The notes below the pieces were generated by a model. That model saw nothing but the letters and a program-made list of their open reading frames with translations, was not told where the DNA came from and ran no database searches. Shown here piece after piece: positions 1-24,429 of a stretch of 64,000 bases of DNA. Position 1 is the stretch's first letter. Every line of letters begins with the position of its first letter. Source of the stretch: a virus. Made by a program: the position numbers and the translations under genes. Location of the stretch: positions 73,472-137,471 of IMG/VR virus record IMGVR_UViG_3300050343_000117, one strand, 5' to 3'.

Positions 1-684
1 TGGACCCGTTTCAGGTTGTGTGATTGCCCAGTTCAGGGCGTTGTAATAATTCCACCTCAAGTCGTCATCAAAGATACCAACTTTGAGGTCCTTATATTTC
101 TCTTCTTTCTCGACTAACCACCAGAGAGAAAATTGGTCCCAAGATTTGAGACTATCTACATACCCTTCCGGCCACCAAGAATCATTCATCTGTCTGAATG
201 TTAAGTCCCACCAGTCATCCATAAATTCACGAACAATTGGTTTAGACATATCATATAAACAAACACCACCGCATAGTGTGAACTTAGATTTACCTTCTGG
301 CGTATCAAAGTCTCTTTCTGCGTAAATATAATCACGATCATCTGTCAATGCTGAGAAGACCAAATCATGGTCTTTCATTTCATCCCAAACCTTGACGATG
401 TCTTCGTGCTCACATTCCATATCAGCATCAATGTACATTGTCAAGTCATACGGAGATTTTGCCATCCCCCATAACTTAGCGCGATAGTGGTCGTCACAAA
501 ACATAATATCATCTGCAACATCTCTACCACGATCATCAAGAAATCTTTCTTCTGTTACCAAACAAATCTTACATTCCTCTTCAGGTTCATAATAATCCCG
601 AATAGACTCTGCAAGATTGATTGCGTACAAATAAAAGTTGCGTTTCTTGGACGCAACAATTATGAATCCTTTAGTCTTTTCCAT
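1..684 (-). CDS. GT-A fold glycosyltransferase, runs off the window edge
   Basis: Not in ORF track; translated by hand from ATG at 684: MEKTKGFIIVASKK...AKLWGMAKSPYDLTMYIDADMEC...CGGVCLY...WDQFSLW; DxD and DQ motifs. Confidence 0.75.
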   Translation of the reverse strand, partial: MEKTKGFIIVASKKRNFYLYAINLAESIRDYYEPEEECKICLVTEERFLDDRGRDVADDIMFCDDHYRAKLWGMAKSPYDLTMYIDADMECEHEDIVKVWDEMKDHDLVFSALTDDRDYIYAERDFDTPEGKSKFTLCGGVCLYDMSKPIVREFMDDWWDLTFRQMNDSWWPEGYVDSLKSWDQFSLWWLVEKEEKYKDLKVGIFDDDLRWNYYNALNWAITQPETGP

Positions 685-1132
685 TAGTCTCGGCCTCTAG
701 TTGGTCTTGTAAAATCATAATTGAGTACATATCGACTTCAATCTTAGACTTTGCACGACGCAATTTTGCCTTCAACTTACGGTTCTTAGAGTTCTTAATC
801 TCTTCGACTTCGAACGCTTCCATCTTATAATTGAAGAGTTTTTCTAGTTTACGTGCCTTGTTATGTTCTTCGTCACGCATCTTCTCTTCTTCTGCTTCTG
901 CCTTCTTTCGTTCAACACGGTCAACAGTTTCCTTGTCAATCGAATCTTCACCTAGGGCATCAACAACTTCATTAAACAGTTCGTTCTCACTACCATCCTT
1001 ATCATGACGGTGTAAAAACATTTGTTGTCGTGTGACACGACCCATATCATCTTCAAGTTCTAGAATACAGTTTAGTTCTTTCTTTTCTTCCGTTTCCCAG
1101 AACGCATTATCCATCCATTGTTTACGACTCAT
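671..1132 (-). CDS. hypothetical charged helical protein
   Basis: 153-aa ORF with GGAG RBS, overlaps start of the next gene. Confidence 0.7.
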   Translation of the reverse strand: MSRKQWMDNAFWETEEKKELNCILELEDDMGRVTRQQMFLHRHDKDGSENELFNEVVDALGEDSIDKETVDRVERKKAEAEEEKMRDEEHNKARKLEKLFNYKMEAFEVEEIKNSKNRKLKAKLRRAKSKIEVDMYSIMILQDQLEAETNGKD

Positions 1133-1241: not shown

Positions 1242-4200
1242 TTATGCAACCCTACAGTATAGAGTATAAGTTTCTGGTGTATGTACTAGAGTGTCGCTAA
1301 TCGTTGCACCAACATAGTTACCTAGGAAGGAACGTGAGTAGTTGCCACCGAAGTTACGTGAGTAATCACCTGTAAACGTACGTGAGTAGTTACCAGTGAA
1401 GTCACCTACGTATGTAGATACACGATCACGTGAGTAAGTACCTGAGTATGCAGAACTACGGATTCTTGCGTAAGCAGAAACCCTTACACGTGAGTAGTTA
1501 CCTACGAAGTCGCGTGAGTAGTTACCTACGAAGTCACCAACAAAATCACGGGCATATGTACCAGTGTATTCACCAGCATATGCTCTTGAGTAGTTACCAG
1601 TGAAGTCACCAGCAAAGTCACGAGTGTACTGACCGGAGAAATCACGTGAGTAGTTACCTGTGAATGTGTTAGAGTAAGTACCAGTGTACTCACCAACGAA
1701 TCCACGAGCGTAGTTTCCTACGTAGTTTCCACCGAAGTTACGTGAGTAAGTTCCGGAGTAAGCGCCAGTGTACTCACCAACGAATCCACGTGAGTAAGTT
1801 CCAGCATATTCACCAGTGAAAGTACGTGCATAGTTTCCTACGTAGTTTCCACCAAACTGTCGAGTGTAATTACCAACATAGTTACCAGTAAAGTCACCAA
1901 CATAATCCCCAACAAAGTTACCCGCATAGTTACGAGAGTATTGTCCGGAGAATGTGCGTGAGTAGTTACCTGTAAAGTCACCAGCAAAGTTAGTTACACG
2001 ATCACGAGTGTATGCAGATGAACGGTTACGTGTGTAAACCGAAACACGAGTCCTTACATATGCAGAGTAACGAGTACGCGTTGAAGTACGAGTGTACTCA
2101 CCAGTATAGTTACCAGCGTAATCGCCAGCGTATCCACGAGCGTAGTTGCCTACGAAGTCACCAGCATACCCACGTGCGTAGTTACCCACGAAGTTACCAG
2201 CGAAGTTAGTTACGCGATCTCTTGTGAAGTCACCAATATAGTTAGTCACACGTGTACGAGCGTAAGCAGAACCACGGTTACGAGTCGAAGTACGTGTTGA
2301 AGTACGAGTAAAGTCGCCAACATAGTTAGTGATACGAGTACGAGCATATGCAGAGTAACGAACGCGAGTAGAAGTTCGAGTTGAAGTTCTTGCGTAGTTA
2401 CCTACGAAGTTACCAGCAAAGTTAGTTACACGGTTACGAGTAAAGTCGCCAACATAGTTAGTGATACGAGTACGAGCGTAAGCAGAGTAACGAGTACGTG
2501 TTGAAGTACGAGTACTAGTTCTTGCGTAGTTACCAACATAATCACCGGCATAACCTAGAGTACGTGTGTAGTCACCTACGTAATCACCAGCATAGTAACC
2601 AGTACGAGTGTAGTAACCAGTCTCAGTACGAGTACGAGTACTAGTTCTTGCGTAGTTACCAGTATAGTGACCAGTGCGTGTACGACCATAGTTACCAGTG
2701 TAAGCACCAGTACGTGTACGAGAGTAATCTCCGGCATATGAGAACGCACGGTTACGTGAGTAATCTCCAGCAAAGTTACCTGTAAAGTTAGTTACACGAT
2801 CACGTGAGTAGTTACCCGCATAAGATGCGTTACGTGTACGAGAGTAGTTTCCTACGAAATCACCGGCATAAGATGCAGCACGGTTACGTGAGTAATCTCC
2901 AGCATAAGATGCATTACGTGTACGTCCGTAGTTACCTACAAAGTTTCCGGTATAGTTAGTAGCACGAGTACGACCATAGTTACCAGTATATGTTACGCCA
3001 CGAGTGTAGTTACCAGTATAGTAGAATGTTGAATTACGAGTACGTGTGTAGTTACCCGCGAAACTGGTTGTTCTGGAATATGTCAAGTTACCTACGAAGT
3101 TACCAGCGAAGTTACCAGCATAAGATGAACCACCCGATTGGTAAGTAACACCATAATGTGATACGAATCCATTCGTGTTTCTCCAAACAGCACGATAATA
3201 TGTTACACCGCCAGCAGTCAGAGATGTTCCGTTTCCTGTCATGCTTCCAACTATAGATCCATTAACATAAACGGTAACAAAATTGATTCCACCTTCATTA
3301 TCCGAACGCCAACCTGTAGTTAACGACCAGTTATTTCCGGAATATGCGTTGGTTACGGTACCACCAGCACCAGTAGAAGTACGTGTGGAAGTACGCGTTG
3401 ATGTTACTGTACGAGTATAGTTTGAAGTTGCTACACTGTTACGAGTATAGTTACCAACATATCCCGTTCCGTTAACAGAGGTTCTAGTATAGTCAAGTGT
3501 TGCAGCACGTCCTCTAGAGTAATCACCAACAAAGTTACCTGTGAAGTTGGTTGCACGAGTACGTGAGTAGTTACCCGCATAAGATGCGGCACGAGTACGT
3601 CCATAGTTACCAGTATATGTTGCATTACGTGTACGTGTTGATGTACGAGCATAGTTACCGACATAAGATGCGGCACGAGTACGTCCATAGTTACCTACGA
3701 AGTTGCCTGCGTAGTTAGTAGCACGAGTACGACCATAGTTACCAGTATAGTGACCAGTACGTGTACGTCCGTAGTTACCGACATATGAGAATGCACGGTT
3801 ACGAGAGTAATCACCAGCGTATGAGAACGCACGGTTACGAGAGTAGTCACCTACGTAGTTTCCAGCATAGTACAATGTACGAGTATATGCTAGTGTACGT
3901 GTTGATGTACGTGTTGAAGTACGTGTATAGTTGTATGTTTGGTAGCGAGTACGTGTTGAAGTTCTTGCGTAATTTCCCACATAATCGCCAGCATAGTTAC
4001 CAGCATATCCACGAGCATAGTTACCAACAAAATCACCTGTGAACGTTGTTGCATAGTTACCAACAAAATCACCAGCAAAGTTAGTTACACGATCACGTGA
4101 ATAGTTACCTACGTAATCACCAGCATAGTTACCAGCGTATCCACGTGCGTAGTTACCAACAAAGTCGCCAGTAAATGTGGTTGCATAGTTACCTACGTAA

Positions 4201-5984
4201 TCACCGGCATAGTTACCAGCAAAGTTACGTGCATAGTTTCCTACGAAGTTACCAACGAAGTCACGAGCATAGTTTCCTACGAAGTTACCGGCAAAGTTAG
4301 TGACACGGTCACGTGTATATGCAGAGTAGCGAGTACGAGTTGACGTACGAGCATATGCTGAATAACGTGTACGAGTAGATGTACGAGTAGAAACGCGAGC
4401 GTAGTTACCAACATAATCACCTGCATAACCACGGGAATAGTTACCTACGAATCCACGTGAGTAGTTACCCACGAATCCACGAGCATAGTTTCCTACGAAG
4501 TTACCGGCAAAGTTAGTGACTCGATTGCGTGTGTAAGTAGAAACACGTGCACGAGAGTAAACGCCTGCAAAGTTAGTTACACGGTCACGTGTATAATTGG
4601 TAATACGAGTACGGGTGTAATCAGCAGAGTATGCTGAAGTACGAGTACGAGTATAAGTCCCTGCGTAAGCAGATACACGGTTGCGTGAATAGGTACCGGC
4701 ATATGCAGATACACGGTTACGAGAATAAGTTCCAGCGTAAGTTCCAGTGTATGTTGATACGCGTGTACGAGTGTAGTCTGCTGAGTAAGAAGAACTACGT
4801 GTACGTGAGTAAGTACCTGAGTAAGTTGAAACACGACCACGAGTATATGCAGATGTGCGAGTACGTGAGAATGTTCCGGTAAATGGTGTGACGCGGTTTC
4901 GAACATATGTAGAAACACGTGAACGGTTGTAAGTACCGGCAAAGTATCCAGTAAATGCAGTTAGTCTATTACGTGTATATGAAGATACGCGTGTTCTTGC
5001 ATAATTACCTACGTAATCACGTGAATAATTACCTACGAAGTCACGGGAATATGCACCAGTGTAGTTACCAACAAACGTACGTGCAAATGTGTCCACACTG
5101 TTACGTGTGTAAGTAGAAACACGGTCACGTGAGTATGCAGAAACCCTAGTACGAGTGTAAGCTGAGTTACGTGTACGAGAGTATGCAACGTCGACAATAG
5201 TACGACGGGTGTTAGAGGCAGAACCTCGTGGTACCCATGTACCTGCCAAAGATGGTGCGCCTTGTGCAGATGAACGCAACTGGTATGAACCAATCGCACC
5301 TGCTGTAGATCGAAGTGATTTAGCACGTTGACCAAGTGTGTACTTGATTTCCGCGTCGGTCATAGACTTCAGACCATTGAATGATGTACCATCATAATCT
5401 GTTGCGACTGGACGTGTAGTAACTACACCAGCTGGTGGAGTTGCAAGTGCAGTTCGTTTCCAGATATGATATTGAGTTGTTGTACCATCACCATGTGTAT
5501 CGGCAAACACATTCTCGATGTGCTTAGTCCAATCACTACCTGGCGAGGTAGTTGAAAGTTCGAATGCACCTTGAAGACCTAGAGTCTCCATGTTTTTTAG
5601 TGCACGGTTTGTCAGATTATCCAAATCCCCATCTACCATTTCGTAGAAGCCAGGATTTGCGTTATCTGCGTAATAACCGACAGGACGGGCAAAATCAGAA
5701 CCAGATTCACTCGCGGAACCAGCAACCTGTTTCAAGGTTGTAGTTACACTTGTGCCAGTGATAGCAGACATTGGGTGTGTACCCGCTGGTTCATTGTAGT
5801 ACGTATCTACAAAAGAACCGATGTTTGTACCATTGGTTAGACTGATGTCACCGACATCACCAGCGGAGGCCTCCGCTAATGCTTCACCCACTTTTACAGC
5901 AAGATACATCTCTTCTGCTGGAGTGAATTCCTGTAGGTCACCATCGGTATTTTTAATTTTTAGTGGTATACTAGATGCTGACAC
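1242..5984 (-). CDS. giant tetrapeptide-repeat virion fibre with collar-like base, mirror-paired arms and central tip domain
   Basis: 1580-aa intact ORF; aa 268-873 and 955-1560 are (Y/F)xGx, (Y/F)xRx, RxSx/RxTN and STRT units; gp10-C/collar-like motifs GTW and YHIWKRTA / YTLYCRVA; own late promoter. Confidence 0.8.
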   Translation of the reverse strand: MSASSIPLKIKNTDGDLQEFTPAEEMYLAVKVGEALAEASAGDVGDISLTNGTNIGSFVDTYYNEPAGTHPMSAITGTSVTTTLKQVAGSASESGSDFARPVGYYADNANPGFYEMVDGDLDNLTNRALKNMETLGLQGAFELSTTSPGSDWTKHIENVFADTHGDGTTTQYHIWKRTALATPPAGVVTTRPVATDYDGTSFNGLKSMTDAEIKYTLGQRAKSLRSTAGAIGSYQLRSSAQGAPSLAGTWVPRGSASNTRRTIVDVAYSRTRNSAYTRTRVSAYSRDRVSTYTRNSVDTFARTFVGNYTGAYSRDFVGNYSRDYVGNYARTRVSSYTRNRLTAFTGYFAGTYNRSRVSTYVRNRVTPFTGTFSRTRTSAYTRGRVSTYSGTYSRTRSSSYSADYTRTRVSTYTGTYAGTYSRNRVSAYAGTYSRNRVSAYAGTYTRTRTSAYSADYTRTRITNYTRDRVTNFAGVYSRARVSTYTRNRVTNFAGNFVGNYARGFVGNYSRGFVGNYSRGYAGDYVGNYARVSTRTSTRTRYSAYARTSTRTRYSAYTRDRVTNFAGNFVGNYARDFVGNFVGNYARNFAGNYAGDYVGNYATTFTGDFVGNYARGYAGNYAGDYVGNYSRDRVTNFAGDFVGNYATTFTGDFVGNYARGYAGNYAGDYVGNYARTSTRTRYQTYNYTRTSTRTSTRTLAYTRTLYYAGNYVGDYSRNRAFSYAGDYSRNRAFSYVGNYGRTRTGHYTGNYGRTRATNYAGNFVGNYGRTRAASYVGNYARTSTRTRNATYTGNYGRTRAASYAGNYSRTRATNFTGNFVGDYSRGRAATLDYTRTSVNGTGYVGNYTRNSVATSNYTRTVTSTRTSTRTSTGAGGTVTNAYSGNNWSLTTGWRSDNEGGINFVTVYVNGSIVGSMTGNGTSLTAGGVTYYRAVWRNTNGFVSHYGVTYQSGGSSYAGNFAGNFVGNLTYSRTTSFAGNYTRTRNSTFYYTGNYTRGVTYTGNYGRTRATNYTGNFVGNYGRTRNASYAGDYSRNRAASYAGDFVGNYSRTRNASYAGNYSRDRVTNFTGNFAGDYSRNRAFSYAGDYSRTRTGAYTGNYGRTRTGHYTGNYARTSTRTRTETGYYTRTGYYAGDYVGDYTRTLGYAGDYVGNYARTSTRTSTRTRYSAYARTRITNYVGDFTRNRVTNFAGNFVGNYARTSTRTSTRVRYSAYARTRITNYVGDFTRTSTRTSTRNRGSAYARTRVTNYIGDFTRDRVTNFAGNFVGNYARGYAGDFVGNYARGYAGDYAGNYTGEYTRTSTRTRYSAYVRTRVSVYTRNRSSAYTRDRVTNFAGDFTGNYSRTFSGQYSRNYAGNFVGDYVGDFTGNYVGNYTRQFGGNYVGNYARTFTGEYAGTYSRGFVGEYTGAYSGTYSRNFGGNYVGNYARGFVGEYTGTYSNTFTGNYSRDFSGQYTRDFAGDFTGNYSRAYAGEYTGTYARDFVGDFVGNYSRDFVGNYSRVRVSAYARIRSSAYSGTYSRDRVSTYVGDFTGNYSRTFTGDYSRNFGGNYSRSFLGNYVGATISDTLVHTPETYTLYCRVA
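1305..5183 (-). repeat. 12-bp-periodic coding repeat region (two arms, 1305-3122 and 3366-5183)
   Basis: Recurrent gtagttacc, acgtgagta and gtacgagta words; about 148 tetrapeptide units per arm by hand count. Confidence 0.9.
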
Positions 5985-6604: not shown

Positions 6605-7351
6605 TTAAATTAATTCTGCCGAAAGAATCATTCCTGTAATTGAATTGCCCCAGGTTTCGCTACTTGTAGTAGAACTACCCCCACCAAAGGGTCCTTCATC
6701 ACCACCACCACCAAAACCACTTCCGGCAAGACTGTAGTAATTGATTGCGTATGGAGCTCCACTAAACATCAATCCTATTAATGAGGTATCTCCGCCATCT
6801 GGTCCTCCGAAACTGCTTAAAGTTCCACTTGTCCAGTTCGATATTTCCCAATAGTCAGAGTTGCTACCTAAGCTAATACCTCCATTTGTTGTAGACCAAG
6901 CATCTACACTTCGTGGCTCATGATATTCCGTAATTTGAAAATGCTGACCTAATTTTATAGATCGACTATCAAATTGTATTGTATTATCTTCGTTATACAC
7001 AGTCAAACCATAATCATCGGTAGATGATACCTTACTGGAGTGTTTTACTACAAAATAATCTAGAGTTACTGCTGTTGCATTAGCAAAAGATGAATCTCCA
7101 CTGTTATTGAAAGTTCCAACTCTTCCGTAAAACTGGGCATTAAACCCCGCACCCATAAAAATTACTGTATTAGCAAAACTACTTGCTTGATTCGAAGGAA
7201 TTTTTACAAAAAGAAAATCATCACTGGCTACAGTAGTACTAGGACTAGTACCAGTTCCAATTTCTGTAATAATATAACTATTCATTTTGCGAGAAGAATC
7301 AAACATTAACCCGCCATTATCATTATATACTGTAAGACCGTATTCGCTCAT
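6605..7351 (-). CDS. putative fibre tip/adhesin protein
   Basis: Two YGLTVYNxxxxxxFDS repeats, Gly/Ser-rich C-terminal loops, tail context. Confidence 0.55.
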   Translation of the reverse strand: MSEYGLTVYNDNGGLMFDSSRKMNSYIITEIGTGTSPSTTVASDDFLFVKIPSNQASSFANTVIFMGAGFNAQFYGRVGTFNNSGDSSFANATAVTLDYFVVKHSSKVSSTDDYGLTVYNEDNTIQFDSRSIKLGQHFQITEYHEPRSVDAWSTTNGGISLGSNSDYWEISNWTSGTLSSFGGPDGGDTSLIGLMFSGAPYAINYYSLAGSGFGGGGDEGPFGGGSSTTSSETWGNSITGMILSAELI

Positions 7352-7641
7352 TATTGAAACCTAAATATTTTTGCAGAAAATGATTGAGATCCGCCACTTG
7401 TATTACTAATTACAATTCTATCATTAGTCGTATCTCTAGATACTGTAATGAAATTATTTGCTGACAAATGAATTCCTATAAGTGCTGGATTTCCAGCACC
7501 ACTTGTTTGGATATTATATGTGCCTCCAGCAGATAGTGCCTGATCAGTCAATTCAAAATCATACTCTTCATTGAATACATTATTAGCATTTGTAATGACG
7601 CCACCATTAACACCGTCTGAAATATATAGTCCATAACTCAT
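7351..7641 (-). CDS. small fibre-associated protein
   Basis: 96 aa, starts MSYGLYI like its neighbour, translationally coupled to both neighbours. Confidence 0.55.
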   Translation of the reverse strand: MSYGLYISDGVNGGVITNANNVFNEEYDFELTDQALSAGGTYNIQTSGAGNPALIGIHLSANNFITVSRDTTNDRIVISNTSGGSQSFSAKIFRFQ

Positions 7642-10600
7642 GATAGATTCCCTAGCTTAACTCTAACTCTAGAGACTTCAACATTATTTTCAATAACAGT
7701 ATCACTAATTGTGATAAGATCGTTAGTAATTGACATACTACCTTGTCCGGCTACACTAGATGTTATATTTAGACCAGTGTCTCCCGCTTGGTAACTATCT
7801 GGATCAGTTGTAATAGCAACTAAACTTGCATCGATTCTACCCGTGGTAATATGACCACCATCAATAGTTGTGATTAAAGCTGATTGCGGATTACCTAACT
7901 CTTGGTTCATGTTTTGGAAAGTAACCAAGCCATTGAAGTTGTAACTACGGAATGCAGCACTTACTGAGACTGTTGTAGCACCATTCTCTCCGGAGGCCTT
8001 TTCTGCAAAGTATCTAGCAGCCCATAACGTACCCGATAGATTAGTTCCCACTGTAGGATCCATTCCCCAGTTACCATTCAATCCGGTGATTGAACCGCCA
8101 TCCGAATCATCCCAAGTAAATCCTAGTGCTGCGCCGGCTGCGTTGTAAGAAGGTTGTAGTCCCGCGGCTAGAGTATCTTGTTCCGCTTCAATTTCGGTGT
8201 AGTAATATACGTACCCACGAGATTCTCTAGGTAGATTTTCTAAGTCCGGAGTTCCTGAATCACCATCGATAGAGTGGATAACTGGACTTGTCCATGTTAA
8301 ATCATCATCGATTCCTTGTAAGTCACCCTGAACTGTAGCTACCGCACGACTCATCCATAGTGCATTACCTAGTGTACGATCTTCTTGTGGAGTTTCTGAC
8401 CAATCAGAAGGTAGTCCATACATTCCATCGTTATCAAAATCATAGTAAACACTCCCGCTTGGGTCATTGTTTGTAGGTAGAGTCCCTATAATGCTTGATA
8501 CGGTCGCAGTAGAAGAATCTCTCTTAAAGATCTGTACCTGATATGTCGAGAAACCGTCCGCACCGTTATTGTGATCTAGGTAAGGAGCAGACCATGTTGC
8601 AGTGTTGTCTGTACCCTCATCACCACTGATAGAGAAGGTTGCTTCAGACGCCCATATAGTACCACCTACGCCTACGTTATATCCCGCAGCGTCCATAAGA
8701 CCCACATCGTCATACCATGTATGATCGGTTGCAGTAGGCATTACTTTAGCGATACCACCCGTGAAGTTAACACTACCACCTGTAGGAGTATTTGGGGCAC
8801 TAGCACTTGGTGTTCTGGTTACCGCAACAACGTGCGCAGTAGATCGGCCAGGTGCACCATTACCGCCCGACTGAGTTGCATTTGGGAGATCCCATTCTAT
8901 TTGAGTATCTTCTACCAGAGGAGTAGTTGCTGTTGGATAGTTGTCTGGTCGAGTTGACGCAACACCTGTAATGACGTATAATTGACTATCACCTGTTGGT
9001 ACTGTTTTAGACCAATCTGCAGGCGGTGTAAATGTTTTAGTTTCGAAGTTAAATGATCCGCCAGACACGGCAGTGGATGTAGTCCAACTACCCGCACGAC
9101 GGTATGCATTAACCTGTGTGACTTGATATCCATCGATACCATCAATCGCAACATTAAGAATTAGTTTTGGTGTAGTAAATGTTAGAGTATTATCTGCACC
9201 GATCGCACCACGAAGAGTAGCGACTGTACTGATCTCCCATAGTGGACCATTGCTTTCGTCGTTACTATCGAACAACGGCGGCATCTCTTCTGTCCAATTG
9301 ATACCTTCACGTGAAGGTAAACTTGTAAATCTGTTTAATGTAAAGTCATACACCGCACCATTTCCCGCATTGTTTGCTGGATTCGGTAGAATGTATTTAG
9401 CCTCTGTTAAGTCTTCATGTGATCGCGCATACAAAGACTTGAAGTATGTTGATACTGGAACGATCGACTGAATCGTAGGTTCTGACCAATCAAGTGGCGT
9501 ACCTGTAGATGTTCTGTCGTCTGTAGCCCAGTCTTCGCCGGTATCACCAAACTGTGTGAATAAGTGATATGACTGCCATAGAGTATCTGTACCAGATGGT
9601 GGTGTTGAGTACCATTGGTTACCCGAAGAATCTGTAATAGGGAATCCTAGATGAACCCCTGCTGGAGTGGCTGCACCGAAATCGATACCACCACCACGTG
9701 GCTCATCTGGTACAACTAAATCGTTGTTGGCGTCTGCGGTATCTGGTACGCGACGATATGCAACCGCTAGGAACGTGGACCTACCATCTTGACCGTCTGT
9801 ACCTGAAGATGTTGGTCGTGGATCTCCCCATGTGATCGAAGTATCAACTGTATTACCTTCTGCAAGATCTACATCACTTGCAATACCTGTTACAACATAC
9901 AGTTGAGGAGTTTCGTCGGTACGAGGTGGGGGTGTGCTTTCCCATCCAGCATCTACCGATGCAGTTACCTGTTCTTCATCTGGTGATAAGTAAATTCCTG
10001 TAGAGAAATCAAATGTACCACCCACTGGAGCATCAGCTGCGCCAAGTGTCGTATCGCTTGCAACTCTCTTATATGCAAATATCTGTGCATACTTAGCTCC
10101 CGCACTGTTATCTACTGGAGTTGACTGTGATCCTACAAGTGATGGATCTGACCATGTGCCTGCGTTTACGGTTACGTCTGGGTCAAGCGTAATAAAGGTT
10201 GTAGTAGACGCGCCAGACATCTTCGTTTGCTGGAGTTGAAGGAATACTTCTGTACCAGTTTGGACCCGTAGGTTCTACAAAGTTTCCGGTCGAAAATGTA
10301 TATGACCCATTGTTTGGTTTTGTAGGGGTAGTCTCTTTTGGAGAACGTGCGTATACTGTGACTGTGTAGACAGATGTACCACCACCGCCAGTGCCACCAC
10401 CGGATTCATCATCCGATATCCAAATAGACCCATTCCATTTTAATACCTGACCGATAGTTTTACCTGTGGTATTAACATCACCCATATCGTCCAAGTTGGA
10501 TGGTATAAATGGTCTATTAGTTAGACTATTATAGTCTCCATCAAAATCACTAGACCCAGAATCGCCTTTGTTCGCAAGTTCTACCCATGAATTATTGTGC

Positions 10601-20465: not shown

Positions 20466-23400
20466 TTACGATATTTTACCAATCTTGACTCTTAGATTAT
20501 TGCTATTGTCAAAGATATCAATACTGTTACTTGTGAACTCAATACGTTCATTGGGTGCTGTCCCTGTATTTAGTAGTCCACTCATATCCACAAATCCTTG
20601 GTTATTTGTCAACTCAGTAAAAGTGGAATTCGTCGTAGTATTTATTCTGTCAACTGTTGCCCTGTAAACACGACCAGTTCCAATATGCCAATAAACATCC
20701 CCAGCATATATAGTGTTCACTGTACGGAACTGTCTAATCATAGCTGATGCAGTTGAGTTAATGTTACTAGGTAGATTTGCGCTGGTATCAAACAATACTG
20801 CATTACCAAATCCGCCGACTGGACCCTGTGCACCTATTGAACCAGAAACTCCCTGTGGTCCCTGATCTCCAATAGCACCTTGAGCACCTTGGTCACCCTG
20901 CGCTCCAGTTTCACCTTGGGCACCTTTATTACCTACAGATCCTTGAGCACCTTTATTACCTACCCCACCTTGAGGGCCTTGGTCACCTTGTGGTCCATCC
21001 TCACCTTGGGCACCTTTATTACCTACAGATCCTTGAGCACCTTTATTACCTACGGCACCTTGAGCACCTTGGTCACCTACAGATCCTTGAGCACCTTTAT
21101 TACCTACCCCACCTTGAGGGCCTTGGTCACCTTGAGGACCATCTTCACCCTGAGCACCTTTATTACCTACGGCACCCTGAGCACCTTTATTACCTACGGC
21201 ACCTTGAGCACCTTGGTCACCTACAGCACCCTGATTACCTACTAGACCTTGAGCACCTTGGTAACCAACTGCTCCCTGACCACCTTGTTCACCCTGATTA
21301 CCTACTAGACCTTGAGCACCTTGGTAGCCTACGGGACCTTGACCACCTTGTTCACCTTGTGGTCCGACTAGACCTTGAGCACCTTGGAATCCAACCGCAC
21401 CTTGGGCACCCTGCTCACCTTGTGGTCCGACTAGACCTTGAGCACCCTGATAACCAACTGCTCCCTGACCACCCTGTTCACCCTGTGGTCCGACTAGACC
21501 CTGTGCACCTTGGAAACCAACTGCACCCTGTGCACCCTGCTCACCTTGTGGTCCGACTAGACCTTGAGCACCTTGGTAACCAACTTCACCTTGGCCTCCC
21601 TGCTCACCTTGAGGACCAACTAGACCCTGTGCACCTCTGAATCCGACCGGACCTTGTTCGCCCTGTTCTCCTTGATTACCTACTAGTCCCTGTGCACCTT
21701 GGAAACCAACTGCACCCTGTGCACCCTGTTCTCCTTGTGGTCCAACTAGACCTTGAGCACCTTGGAATCCAACTTCACCCTGAGAACCTTGTTCTCCTTG
21801 TGGTCCAACTAGACCCTGTGCGCCTCTGAATCCGACCGGACCTTGACCGCCTTGTTCACCTTGATTACCAACTAGACCCTGTGCCCCTTGGAATCCAACT
21901 TCACCTTGGGAACCTTGTTCACCCTGTGGTCCGACTAGACCCTGTGCACCTTGGAAACCTACAGCACCCTGACCACCCTGTTCTCCTTGAGGACCTACTA
22001 AACCTTGAGCTCCACGCTCGCCTTGATTTCCTTTATCCCCTTGTTCTCCTTGGTTACCTACTAGACCTTGAGCACCTTGAACACCGACAGCACCTTGGGA
22101 ACCTTGCTCACCCTGTGGTCCAACTAGACCTTGAGCACCTTGGAAACCAACTGCGCCTTGAGCACCTTGCTCTCCTTGATTACCTACTAGACCCTGTGCA
22201 CCTTGGAAACCTACAGCACCTTGCGGTCCAGTGTCACCTTGAGCACCAGAATCACCTTGAGCACCCTGATCACCTACAGCACCTTGATTACCTACTAGAC
22301 CCTGTGCACCCGCATTACCCTGCGCACCAGTATCACCTTGAGCACCCTGATCACCTACAGCACCTTGATTACCTACTAGACCCTGTGCACCTTGGAAACC
22401 TACAGCACCCTGTGCACCAGCTTGACCCTGTGCACCCGCACTACCCTGAGAACCAACTGTACCTTGCGGTCCTACAATACCCTGTGCGCCAGTTTCACCT
22501 TGTGCACCAGTATCACCTTCAGCACCTTGTGGACCTGCGTCACCTGTAGCACCTTGTGGACCTATCGGGCCTGGGGTTGTACCTGCTGGTCCTTGAGGAC
22601 CCGCATCGCCAGGCAATCCTTGTGGACCTACTGGGCCTGGCGTAGTTCCTGCTGGACCTTTAGGGCCTGGATCACCAGTAAGACCTTGACCACCCTGCGC
22701 TCCAGTTTCACCAGTTGCACCTTTTTCTCCTGTGGCTCCAGTTTCACCTTGTGCACCAGTGTCTCCGACTGCACCTTGAGGACCAACTAGACCCTGTGCA
22801 CCAGTGTCTCCCTGAGCACCTTTATCACCAACGTTACCTTGAACGCCAACAGAACCTTGAAAACCTTGACTACCTTGGACACCTTTATCACCAACGTTTC
22901 CTTGTAGACCCTGCTCTCCTTGTTCTCCCTTATCGCCTTGAGAACCTTTGTCTCCGACGTTGCCCTGAATACCAGCAGATCCCTGTGGGCCCGCTTCACC
23001 CTGAGCACCTTTATCTCCTACTTCACCCTGTACGCCGGTAGAACCTTGTGGTCCATCTTCACCTTGTGCACCACGAACACCGACATTACCTTGAACACCG
23101 ACAGTACCCTGTGATCCTTGAACACCCTGTCCACCCAATGGACCGACGTTACCTTGAAGTCCAGTAGACCCTTGAGCACCAGCTTCTCCTTGTGCTCCTA
23201 TCTCACCGACATTACCTTGAACACCCTGTGGACCAACCGTACCCGGCGAACCTTGAGGACCCAATAGACCAACATTACCTTGAATACCTTGGAAGCCCTG
23301 TGGTCCCCGATCACCCTGAGCACCTAATGGACCAACATTACCTTGGACCCTGTTCACCTATAGCACCTTGTCCACCCTGTGGTCCTAAAGGTCCAACGTT

Positions 23401-24429
23401 ACCTTGGACACCTTGTTCACCTTGAGAACCCTGAATGCCCTGTGCACCCAATGGACCAACATTACCTTGGACACCTTGTTCACCTTGTGCGCCGGCCTCA
23501 CCTTGAGGACCCAATGGACCAACGTTACCTTGGACACCTTGTTCCCCTTGTGCGCCTTGCTGACCTTGTGCACCTAATGGTCCAACGTTTCCTTGAACAC
23601 CTTGTTCTCCTTGTGCTCCTTGTTCCCCTTGAGCACCCAGTTCACCGACATTACCTTGGACACCTTGCTCACCTTGAGAACCCTGAATACCCTGAGCACC
23701 CAATGGTCCAACGTTACCCTGAACACCTTGTTCTCCTTGAGCACCCCGCTCTCCTTGAGGACCTAGTTCACCGACGTTACCTTGAACGCCTTGGAAACCC
23801 TGAGCACCTCGTTCTCCTTGTGCACCCAGTTCACCAACGTTACCTTGGACACCTTGTTCTCCTTGTGCGCCCCGTTCTCCTTGTGGTCCTAGTTCACCGA
23901 CATTACCTTGGACACCTTGCTCACCTTGAGCACCCTGCTCTCCTTGGGGTCCTAGTTCACCAACGTTACCCTGAACACCTTGGAAACCCTGAGCACCAAC
24001 ATTACCTTGTGGTCCTATAGGTCCAACAGTACCCTGCCATCCTAGAGATCCTTGTGGACCTATCGGGCCTGGATCACCTTGCGGACCTTTCTCACCAATA
24101 TCAGTATTGTCAATTAGTGTGTTGATGTCAGAAATTTGTTGATCAAGTGTACTGATCAATCCTTCGTTCTGAGTTACCCGTGTGCCTAAAGCATTTACGG
24201 TAGCACTATTACCAATAGCATCACTTAGGTCTGCACTTCCGATTGCTTTGCTTACAGAGCTGTCAACGATATCACTAAGATCTCCTATAGAAATATCACC
24301 ATCACCTGACAGCGTGGTTAGATCATAAAGTTCTTGGAAGTTTGCATTAATTTTTTCACTGGCTTCACGGAGAGTATCTCCCTTTCCGTCGTTGGCAGCT
24401 CCGCCTGTGTCTAGAATTCTTCTTGTCAT
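20466..24429 (-). CDS. collagen-like tail fibre (joined across a 2-nt deletion near 23347)
   Basis: gp9/gp10-like N-terminus [23 protein letters not shown]; about 365 Gly-X-Y triplets (20810-24096); globular C-terminus; GGT(GT)CCAA restores the GEQGVQGNV repeat. Confidence 0.85.

Follow-up and report, generated by a model that had tools for sequence, protein, structure and literature searches.

A probable fold-back fibre protein with two mirror-ordered 606-residue arms in a marine T4-like cyanophage

Triple β-helix and β-solenoid shafts of the T4 gp5C and gp12 type are built on local turn-to-turn contacts with a fixed super-period. Another thin shaft, in which the chain runs out to a tip and returns to its base, is the gp37 needle (D10–D11) of T4. 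Its base combines an N-side segment (residues 811–881) with the C-terminal end (1010–1026; PMC6957217, PMC9659904), and two stem segments of equal length (882–931 and 960–1009) enclose a tip (932–959) at the mid-point (PMC6957217). The same account describes Gly921 of the stem as irreplaceable, packing on Phe970 of the neighbouring subunit, and His-x-His motifs in the stem as coordinating seven iron atoms (PMC6957217). This Gly–Phe contact falls on the mirror sum of the stem, 921 + 970 being equal to 882 + 1009. Here we analyse a gene with a comparable layout on a much larger scale: open reading frame (ORF) 1242–5984 on the minus strand of a 64,000-nucleotide window, the last 64 kb of the 137-kb IMG/VR virus record IMGVR_UViG_3300050343_000117. 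It has a GTG start and encodes a protein of 1580 amino acids (aa) that we read as a fold-back fibre. By sequence, the source phage is a marine, Kyanoviridae-like T4-like cyanophage.

Mirror-order pairing of the two arms

The protein comprises a head domain, an outgoing (N) arm, an apex, a returning (C) arm and a short tail (Table 1). Aromatic residues follow a strict four-residue period throughout aa 268–873 and 955–1560, and the apex (aa 874–954) sits at the symmetry centre of these two arms. The arms are written in an alphabet of about ten amino acids (T, R, Y, G, A, S, N, V, F and D), contain no Lys, Cys, Met or Trp and hold a single His each; acidic residues are few, and the net charges of +68 and +46 add up to +114 per chain. 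Positions 1 and 3 of a unit are Tyr/Phe/Arg/Ser and Arg/Gly/Ser/Thr, and positions 2 and 4 are Val/Ala/Thr/Ser and Asn/Asp/Thr/Ala. A collagen-like fibre was rejected, the arm period being four rather than the three of Gly-X-Y.

Dynamic programming parsed each arm into 155 elements, namely 148 tetrads and seven dipeptides, with the dipeptides at identical indices when one arm is mirrored (104, 108, 110, 142, 145, 149 and 151) and forming the pairs YN:LG, LA:GY, LY:GY, LD:VT, TG:FY, SN:TS and VT:LT. This parse was tuned to recover the dipeptide inserts; the residue-level register test given below is independent of it. A first-pass annotation, made from the letters of the window, had described two 606-aa arms of this very composition around an 81-aa apex, with the same seven insert pairs, all of them mirrored, and both descriptions were reproduced exactly. 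It had also claimed that every unit starting with R or S faces an aromatic-x-Gly-x unit. The rule holds without exception: a [YF]xGx unit stands opposite an R/S-start unit in 78 of 78 cases (N arm, 45; C arm, 33), with 0 violations. In the shuffle control that the annotation had proposed, 10,000 permutations of the C-arm units gave a mean of 30.7 matches (standard deviation (s.d.) 4.1, maximum 46). Each of 24 shifted unit registers yielded 14–43 matches and 26–52 violations, and the parallel alignment of the arms gave 24 and 45, respectively. Units of the (Y/F)xRx type had been said mostly to face each other, and 37 YxRx units do stand opposite YxRx, with 16 opposite [YF]xGx.

Counted residue by residue without any parse, the mirror register (i + j = 1827, 1-based) contains no R:R and no G:G pair, 57 R:G pairs and 111 pairs of an aromatic residue with R. 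R:R and G:G are both zero at this register only; registers shifted by multiples of four contain 13–37 R:R pairs. Among ~600 antiparallel and ~600 parallel registers, the mirror register is the clear maximum of the pairing statistic (0.266 versus a mean of 0.038, s.d. 0.038), the best parallel N-versus-C register reaching 0.144. Enrichment over expectation is marked for R:Y (104 versus 46.7), G:R (57 versus 26.5) and F:T (20 versus 3.9), F:S and G:S being likewise enriched, and R:R is absent where 19.4 pairs are expected, as are R:S, Y:Y and G:G. In this register, the first position of a unit in either arm lies opposite the third position of a unit in the other, which yields a checkerboard of Tyr with Arg, or of large residues (Arg, Phe) over small ones (Gly, Ser/Thr). 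The large-over-small code of the first-pass annotation is thus borne out, with R:G, F:S/T and Y:R over-represented and R:R, G:G and R:S missing.

The local-contact alternative named in the same annotation, a solenoid, was also checked. No parallel lag of 2–64 within an arm shows an Arg–Arg exclusion like that of the mirror register (minimum R:R of 8, at lag 4), and the autocorrelation of aromatic residues is flat over lags 4–24, that is, there is no constant super-period; a solenoid or other local periodicity is unsupported. Searches of the DNA found 0 inverted-repeat pairs, and its complementarity does not peak where the arms mirror each other. A DNA palindrome is therefore rejected as the cause of the mirror order, and the symmetry belongs to the protein, not to the nucleic acid.

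Tandem self-similarity at a lag of 72 aa (40–46 of 72 residues identical) was seen at aa 460–700 and aa 1120–1312 (nucleotides ~3885–4605 and ~2049–2625). These regions are approximate mirror partners, which suggests matched block duplications in both arms.

Register and arm length across relatives

The fibre protein matched no Pfam or PHROG family, a phmmer comparison of the whole protein with every PDB chain yielded no match at E ≤ 1, and a protein atlas search returned only unnamed viral clusters (scores 0.85–0.88). Among GenBank phage records, the head domain matched that of phage C48C1 only. The head domain alone nevertheless defines 357 clusters (50% identity) at E ≤ 0.001, of which 277 are retained at E ≤ 1e-10. 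The head landmark occurs together with the conserved C-terminal ending (...ETYTLY.R.A) in 126 complete family members of 381–2503 aa, and the ending is also kept in 37 of 37 complete IMG/VR relatives. The apex is hypervariable: its alignment score reaches at least 85 in only four of 36 IMG/VR relatives (L042, L022, L053 and L037) and in C48C1, and a search with the apex region (aa 862–966) found no homologue among proteins of 869–2765 aa.

Several relatives differ in domain content or in the residues of their arms. The close relative P0002, a C-terminally cut metagenome protein of 1798 aa with 57% identity, holds inserted FG-GAP-like repeats and a LamG-like domain (PF14312, PF13385) in its head domain, ahead of the arms. 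P0200, P0195, P0185 and P0011 keep the mirror order with other arm alphabets. Alphabets of this kind include GVRDVNFx repeats followed by GPQPQNFx repeats, and acidic units (FExx) in place of Arg-rich ones; another has GNPxIxYx octads on either side of a short turn, flanked by FxGT/FExx tetrads.

The register was compared in a test set of 38 proteins, made up of the 37 distinct complete ORFs from 66 IMG/VR loci, less L024, on which the head landmark failed, plus the window protein and its C48C1 homologue. The register anchored at the base, that is, at the end of the head and the start of the tail, was the best in 33 of these 38 (796–2282 aa), and in 28 of 38 (total lengths 850–2282 aa) it extended without a gap along 80% or more of the arm length. 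Ungapped arm lengths were 236 aa (L018), 284, 420, 464, 548, 576, 584, 592, 600 (window), 608, 620, 640 and 660 aa, the longest being the 960 aa of the 2282-aa L039; arm lengths from pattern-based segmentation are accurate to about ±58 aa only. Equal ungapped arms over the range of 236–960 aa imply that arm length has changed many times, always by the same amount in the two arms. Globular domains that interrupt only one arm, such as the ~230-aa insert in the returning arm of L055 and L056, are skipped without loss of register.

Two wider sets were scored on Arg/Gly pairing. The head/tail-anchored register was the best in 15 (872–1580 aa) of 57 two-landmark homologues; pooled at that register, these 15 contain five R:R pairs and 180 R:G or G:R pairs, and 20 shifted registers give 26–142 R:R pairs. 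Across the 126 complete members, with the register picked among hundreds to thousands per protein, the single best one was exactly base-anchored in 28, including all 12 with z ≥ 5.9. Close relatives may also swap polarity: P0004 begins its N arm with R-units (RVSA) and closes its C arm with G-units (FVGN), and P0008 shows the opposite, with FAGD and RVSS at the corresponding sites.

The C48C1 protein (WJE88074.1 of OQ984149.1, Kyanoviridae), a 3347-aa ‘hypothetical protein’, is a true homologue with 67% identity over the head, and shares with the window fibre its neighbourhood, tail ending, unit code and a related apex (score 111). It differs in having arms of ~1030 aa instead of 606 aa, and in five globular inserts of ~120–245 aa that the window protein lacks, all of them in the returning arm and spaced ~70–85 repeat residues apart. 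The repeat segments between them were placed by sliding each along the N arm, residue-level dynamic-programming alignment being misled by the periodicity. Segment C1369–1807 then faces N859–1297 (score 132, next register 78) and C2136–2407 faces N574–845 (score 88, next 74); three short base-proximal segments have no unique placement. The C-arm repeat segments sum to 1023 aa, compared with ~1031 aa for the N arm. A ~75-aa tandem duplication across the end of one insert is either real or an assembly artefact.

Taken across these proteins, the sequences support a constraint of both arms against each other in one antiparallel register, in which one-sided changes appear only as globular inserts or rare small bulges.

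The fold-back reading and its rivals

We consider it likely that the protein is a fold-back fibre, with the head and the returning strand as its base, the 606-aa arms paired out and back, and a knob at mid-chain. The base would be formed by the head domain (aa 1–267) together with the returning C-terminal strand (aa 1561–1580), the head serving as the attachment point on the virion and docking on the baseplate or on another fibre. From there the chain would run outwards for 606 residues of four-residue units, turn at the 81-residue variable knob, and run back for another 606, each returning unit packed on its outgoing counterpart at equal height. The arms are envisaged as extended β-strands forming a thin shaft; unit positions 1 and 3 would point to one face of a strand and positions 2 and 4 to the other, and contact would be made on one face by size complementarity, pairing Arg with Gly, Phe with Ser/Thr and Tyr with Arg, but never Arg with Arg. 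If the register is fixed unit by unit in this manner, shaft length can change only by matched changes in both arms. By analogy with the T4 gp37 stem, the shaft would most probably be a parallel trimer with six strands; an outgoing strand may contact the returning strand of its own or of a neighbouring chain, and the sequence fits both. The hypervariable apex is a putative receptor-binding tip. We infer a shaft of ~150–200 nm if fully extended; 0.3–0.33 nm per residue would give ~180–200 nm, and less if the strands coil, figures that are arithmetic and not a measurement.

The first-pass annotation had gone further and proposed one continuous antiparallel hairpin of about 200 nm. Its single mirror register stands, and its β-strands, within-chain pairing and length keep the status of deductions. 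A strong form of this proposal, a β ribbon of two strands (or six in a trimer) that extends for hundreds of nanometres and whose register is set digitally by the four-residue code (R-unit:G-unit and YxRx:YxRx), seems to us possible but somewhat short of an even chance. Were it true, the ribbon would parallel, in protein form, the stem of a nucleic acid. Phages would then adjust fibre length between ~80 and 300 nm through matched insertions of units, attach globular domains freely to the returning strand and present a receptor-binding knob in mid-polypeptide.

Structure models bear on the base of the fibre. AlphaFold2 models of the relatives P0006 (876 aa, 62-row alignment) and P0142 (436 aa, 61-row alignment) have heads with a predicted local distance difference test (pLDDT) score of >90 and last 20–30 residues with pLDDT 77–98. 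Long strands are confident in both only nearest the head and the tail: they leave the head at E264–303 (P0006) and E260–287 (P0142) and enter the C-terminus at E833–874 and E405–434, respectively. The C-terminal strand is confidently predicted to adjoin the strand that leaves the head domain, and since the best fold alignments span residues 44 to 876, it would be part of the head domain itself. A wide VIA-align search with the P0006 model gave matches to β-prism-like MABP/MACPF-P2 folds (Z 5.2–6.2) that are too weak to name the fold; its listing contained no collar, gp37 or other fibre fold, an absence that leaves a collar fold possible. Foldseek against PDB and BFVD returned nothing at E ≤ 0.001. 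A trimer prediction of aa 774–1054 scored 0.00, with an uncertain fold, and is evidence for neither side.

Several observations weigh against the fold-back reading. Presence in the virion, the trimeric state and receptor binding are all presumed. The arms have pLDDT <50 in both models (residues 291–847 of P0006 and 297–405 of P0142); they are unresolved by AlphaFold2, and no computed structure shows the ribbon. A charge of +114 per chain needs explaining if the arms form a compact bundle; candidates for stabilizing a cationic shaft are Tyr–Arg stacking, counter-ions and modification. In the wider family, the Arg/Gly score misses the base register in 98 of 126 members, where the signals are weak; several of the 98 visibly use other alphabets, and the Arg/Gly pairing rule does not extend to these 98 on this score. 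Residue-level covariation is also faint. Mutual information between the N arm and the reversed C arm peaks at the predicted offsets, but modestly (0.397/0.390 versus ~0.36), the double-change fraction among close relatives is 0.438 at the true register versus 0.452 at a shift of −4 (0.36–0.38 at other shifts), and strict R:G to G:R exchanges at aligned sites numbered only 1 of 210. The anti-diagonal coevolution that the first-pass annotation had proposed as a check is thus weak at single residues, and the arms seem to evolve by replacement of whole units or blocks instead. Finally, two changes are unmatched: an 8-aa register shift in P0142 and a 24-aa indel in L048. The latter protein (1651 aa) lacks 24 aa (six units) in the returning arm relative to the 1675-aa L044, L047 and L050; the gap lies ~204 aa from the base, and the register is displaced by +24 beyond it. 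L048 may represent an intermediate stage of evolution that carries a bulge, or its repeats may have been collapsed by the assembly. Homologues with unequal arms or unmirrored indels had been named in advance as refuting the hairpin; the arms are equal in 28 of the 38 proteins tested, and these two cases go the other way.

Of the competing explanations, the one that fares best, although we hold it unlikely, is that the paired ribbon is folded or coiled further, as a super-helix, stacked sheets or a solenoid, into a shorter, thicker rod or a globular repeat domain. It draws on the arms being without a computed structure and on stretches with local 12-residue and 72-residue regularities. Against it, there is no constant super-period, the aromatic autocorrelation being flat at lags 4–24, and none of the parallel lags of 2–64 shows mirror-like exclusion; moreover, arm length varies freely by single units in relatives, which a fixed turn size would hardly permit.

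More improbable still is a rod in which two chains, neither of them turning, run antiparallel, each N arm lying along the C arm of the partner chain; the rod would have double the length, carry head/tail junctions at its two ends and hold both apex domains at its middle. The constant i + j, the equal arms and the adjacency of head and tail are satisfied equally well by this arrangement, and the mirror contact of gp37, Gly921–Phe970, is one between subunits (PMC6957217). A fibre, however, needs one attachment end and one distal end, and known tail fibres are parallel trimers. The Gly-flanked central knob is hypervariable, as expected for an exposed tip, and the monomer models bring the C-terminal strand to the head of the same chain at pLDDT >90.

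That the mirror order goes back to a past inverted duplication or falls out of the repeat grammar, the arms not being in contact, is barely credible: the arms do share a small unit vocabulary and direct DNA repeats, but the DNA holds no inverted repeat, the relation is one of complementarity and not identity (all 78 R/S units opposite G units), shuffles and all shifted registers fail, and the register has outlasted arm changes over 236–960 aa and one-sided globular inserts, which requires continuing selection on both arms together, so that a purely historical mirror is contradicted by the missing palindrome and the co-varying arm lengths.

Gene neighbourhood and comparison with known fibres

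The baseplate region of the window is 75% identical in DNA to that of phage C48C1. The gene lies within a baseplate and tail-fibre module, which is the generic mark of a tail fibre, and C48C1 is arranged alike. A fibre/connector gene is among the neighbours, and the genes that lie upstream in the same orientation are baseplate wedge subunits, two collagen-like fibre ORFs, a further fibre of 860 aa and the chaperone-like gene, whose order relative to the fibre gene recurs in C48C1 (Table 1). The 153-aa protein encoded downstream (671..1132) and a partial ORF at 1–684 (−) have no Pfam or PHROG match. The region of the collagen-like ORFs has a raised G+C content (0.48–0.54), and the pair may represent a single gene that a frameshift or the choice of start has divided. 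In the separate fibre set, the 860-aa protein consists of repeated ~130-aa modules, each with a W..P... motif, and the 248-aa protein has two ‘YGLTVYN’ repeats.

Table 1 Features of the fibre gene, its neighbours in the window and the C48C1 homologue
Feature	Protein extent	Nucleotide position (strand)	Remarks
N-terminal head domain	aa 1–267	5184..5984 (−)	non-repetitive; family-defining; presumed attachment base
Outgoing (N) arm	aa 268–873, 606 aa	3366..5183 (−)	148 tetrads + 7 dipeptide inserts
Apex	aa 874–954, 81 aa	3123..3365 (−)	non-repetitive, Gly-rich ends; presumed distal receptor-binding tip
Returning (C) arm	aa 955–1560, 606 aa	1305..3122 (−)	mirror-order complement of N arm
C-terminal tail + stop	aa 1561–1580, 20 aa	1242..1304 (−)	conserved ...ETYTLY.R.A ending; presumed to return to head domain
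Highly charged Glu/Lys-rich protein	153 aa	671..1132 (−)	directly downstream of fibre gene; 84% identical to C48C1 counterpart
Tail-fibre assembly chaperone-like gene	146 aa	6151..6591 (−)	directly upstream of fibre gene; PF16778 E 1.3e-14; PHROG 4912 2.5e-13
Separate fibre set		6605–7351 and 7638–10220 (−)	precedes chaperone-like gene
Collagen-like Gly-X-Y ORFs	963 and 363 aa	20466–23357 and 23338–24429 (−)	adjacent/overlapping; non-collagen C-terminal domain
C48C1 homologue gene		L002 2012–12055 (OQ984149.1)	unannotated in record

The pairing rule is explicit, testable and unusually long-range. If the fold-back reading is true, the fibre would be the longest known self-paired protein element and would offer a simple, readable rule for antiparallel strand registration, of interest for the design of length-programmable nanofibres and for how repeat proteins keep distant segments in step during evolution. 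The 357 head-domain clusters would amount to a large family of unannotated, probable receptor-binding fibres of marine T4-like cyanophages, and a putative host-recognition tip in mid-chain, combined with variable shaft length, would be relevant to predicting host range from metagenomes.

A full-text literature search found no description of a mirror-complementary tetrapeptide fibre; tentaclins (PMC10743442) are unrelated. The statement of the first-pass annotation that no described fibre has this architecture was nevertheless too strong, since gp37, with its nested collar, stem and tip, is built on this topology too, at roughly a twelfth of the size, a precedent that the annotation itself had partly acknowledged. 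With triple β-helix and solenoid shafts the window protein has in common short-period repeats containing Gly and aromatic residues, and a thin phage fibre; unlike them, it has no super-period, and its only strong constraint is long-range and antiparallel.

The likeness to the gp37 needle goes further. At the level of sequence and models, both have equal outgoing and returning segments, a tip at mid-chain and both chain ends in the base; both place a Gly of one strand opposite an aromatic residue at the mirror position; and both are encoded by a fibre gene of a T4-like phage with a chaperone gene close by. Unlike the needle, the window protein has arms of 606 aa (236–960 aa in relatives) instead of ~50, and its shaft follows a strict code of four residues in which Arg pairs with Gly, Phe with Ser/Thr and Tyr with Arg. 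Its arms, with one His each, have no His-x-His iron sites, compared with the seven iron atoms in gp37. The fold-back part makes up nearly the whole protein here but only the last fifth of gp37, and there is no detectable sequence relation to any PDB chain, the head giving only weak β-prism-like matches. The best reading, by analogy, is that of a giant counterpart of the gp37 needle, with a stem grown from ~50 to 606 residues per arm. Thus, the topology is a known one, that of the gp37 design, and it is the scale, the four-residue code, the absence of iron sites and the sequence that mark a distinct, unannotated family.

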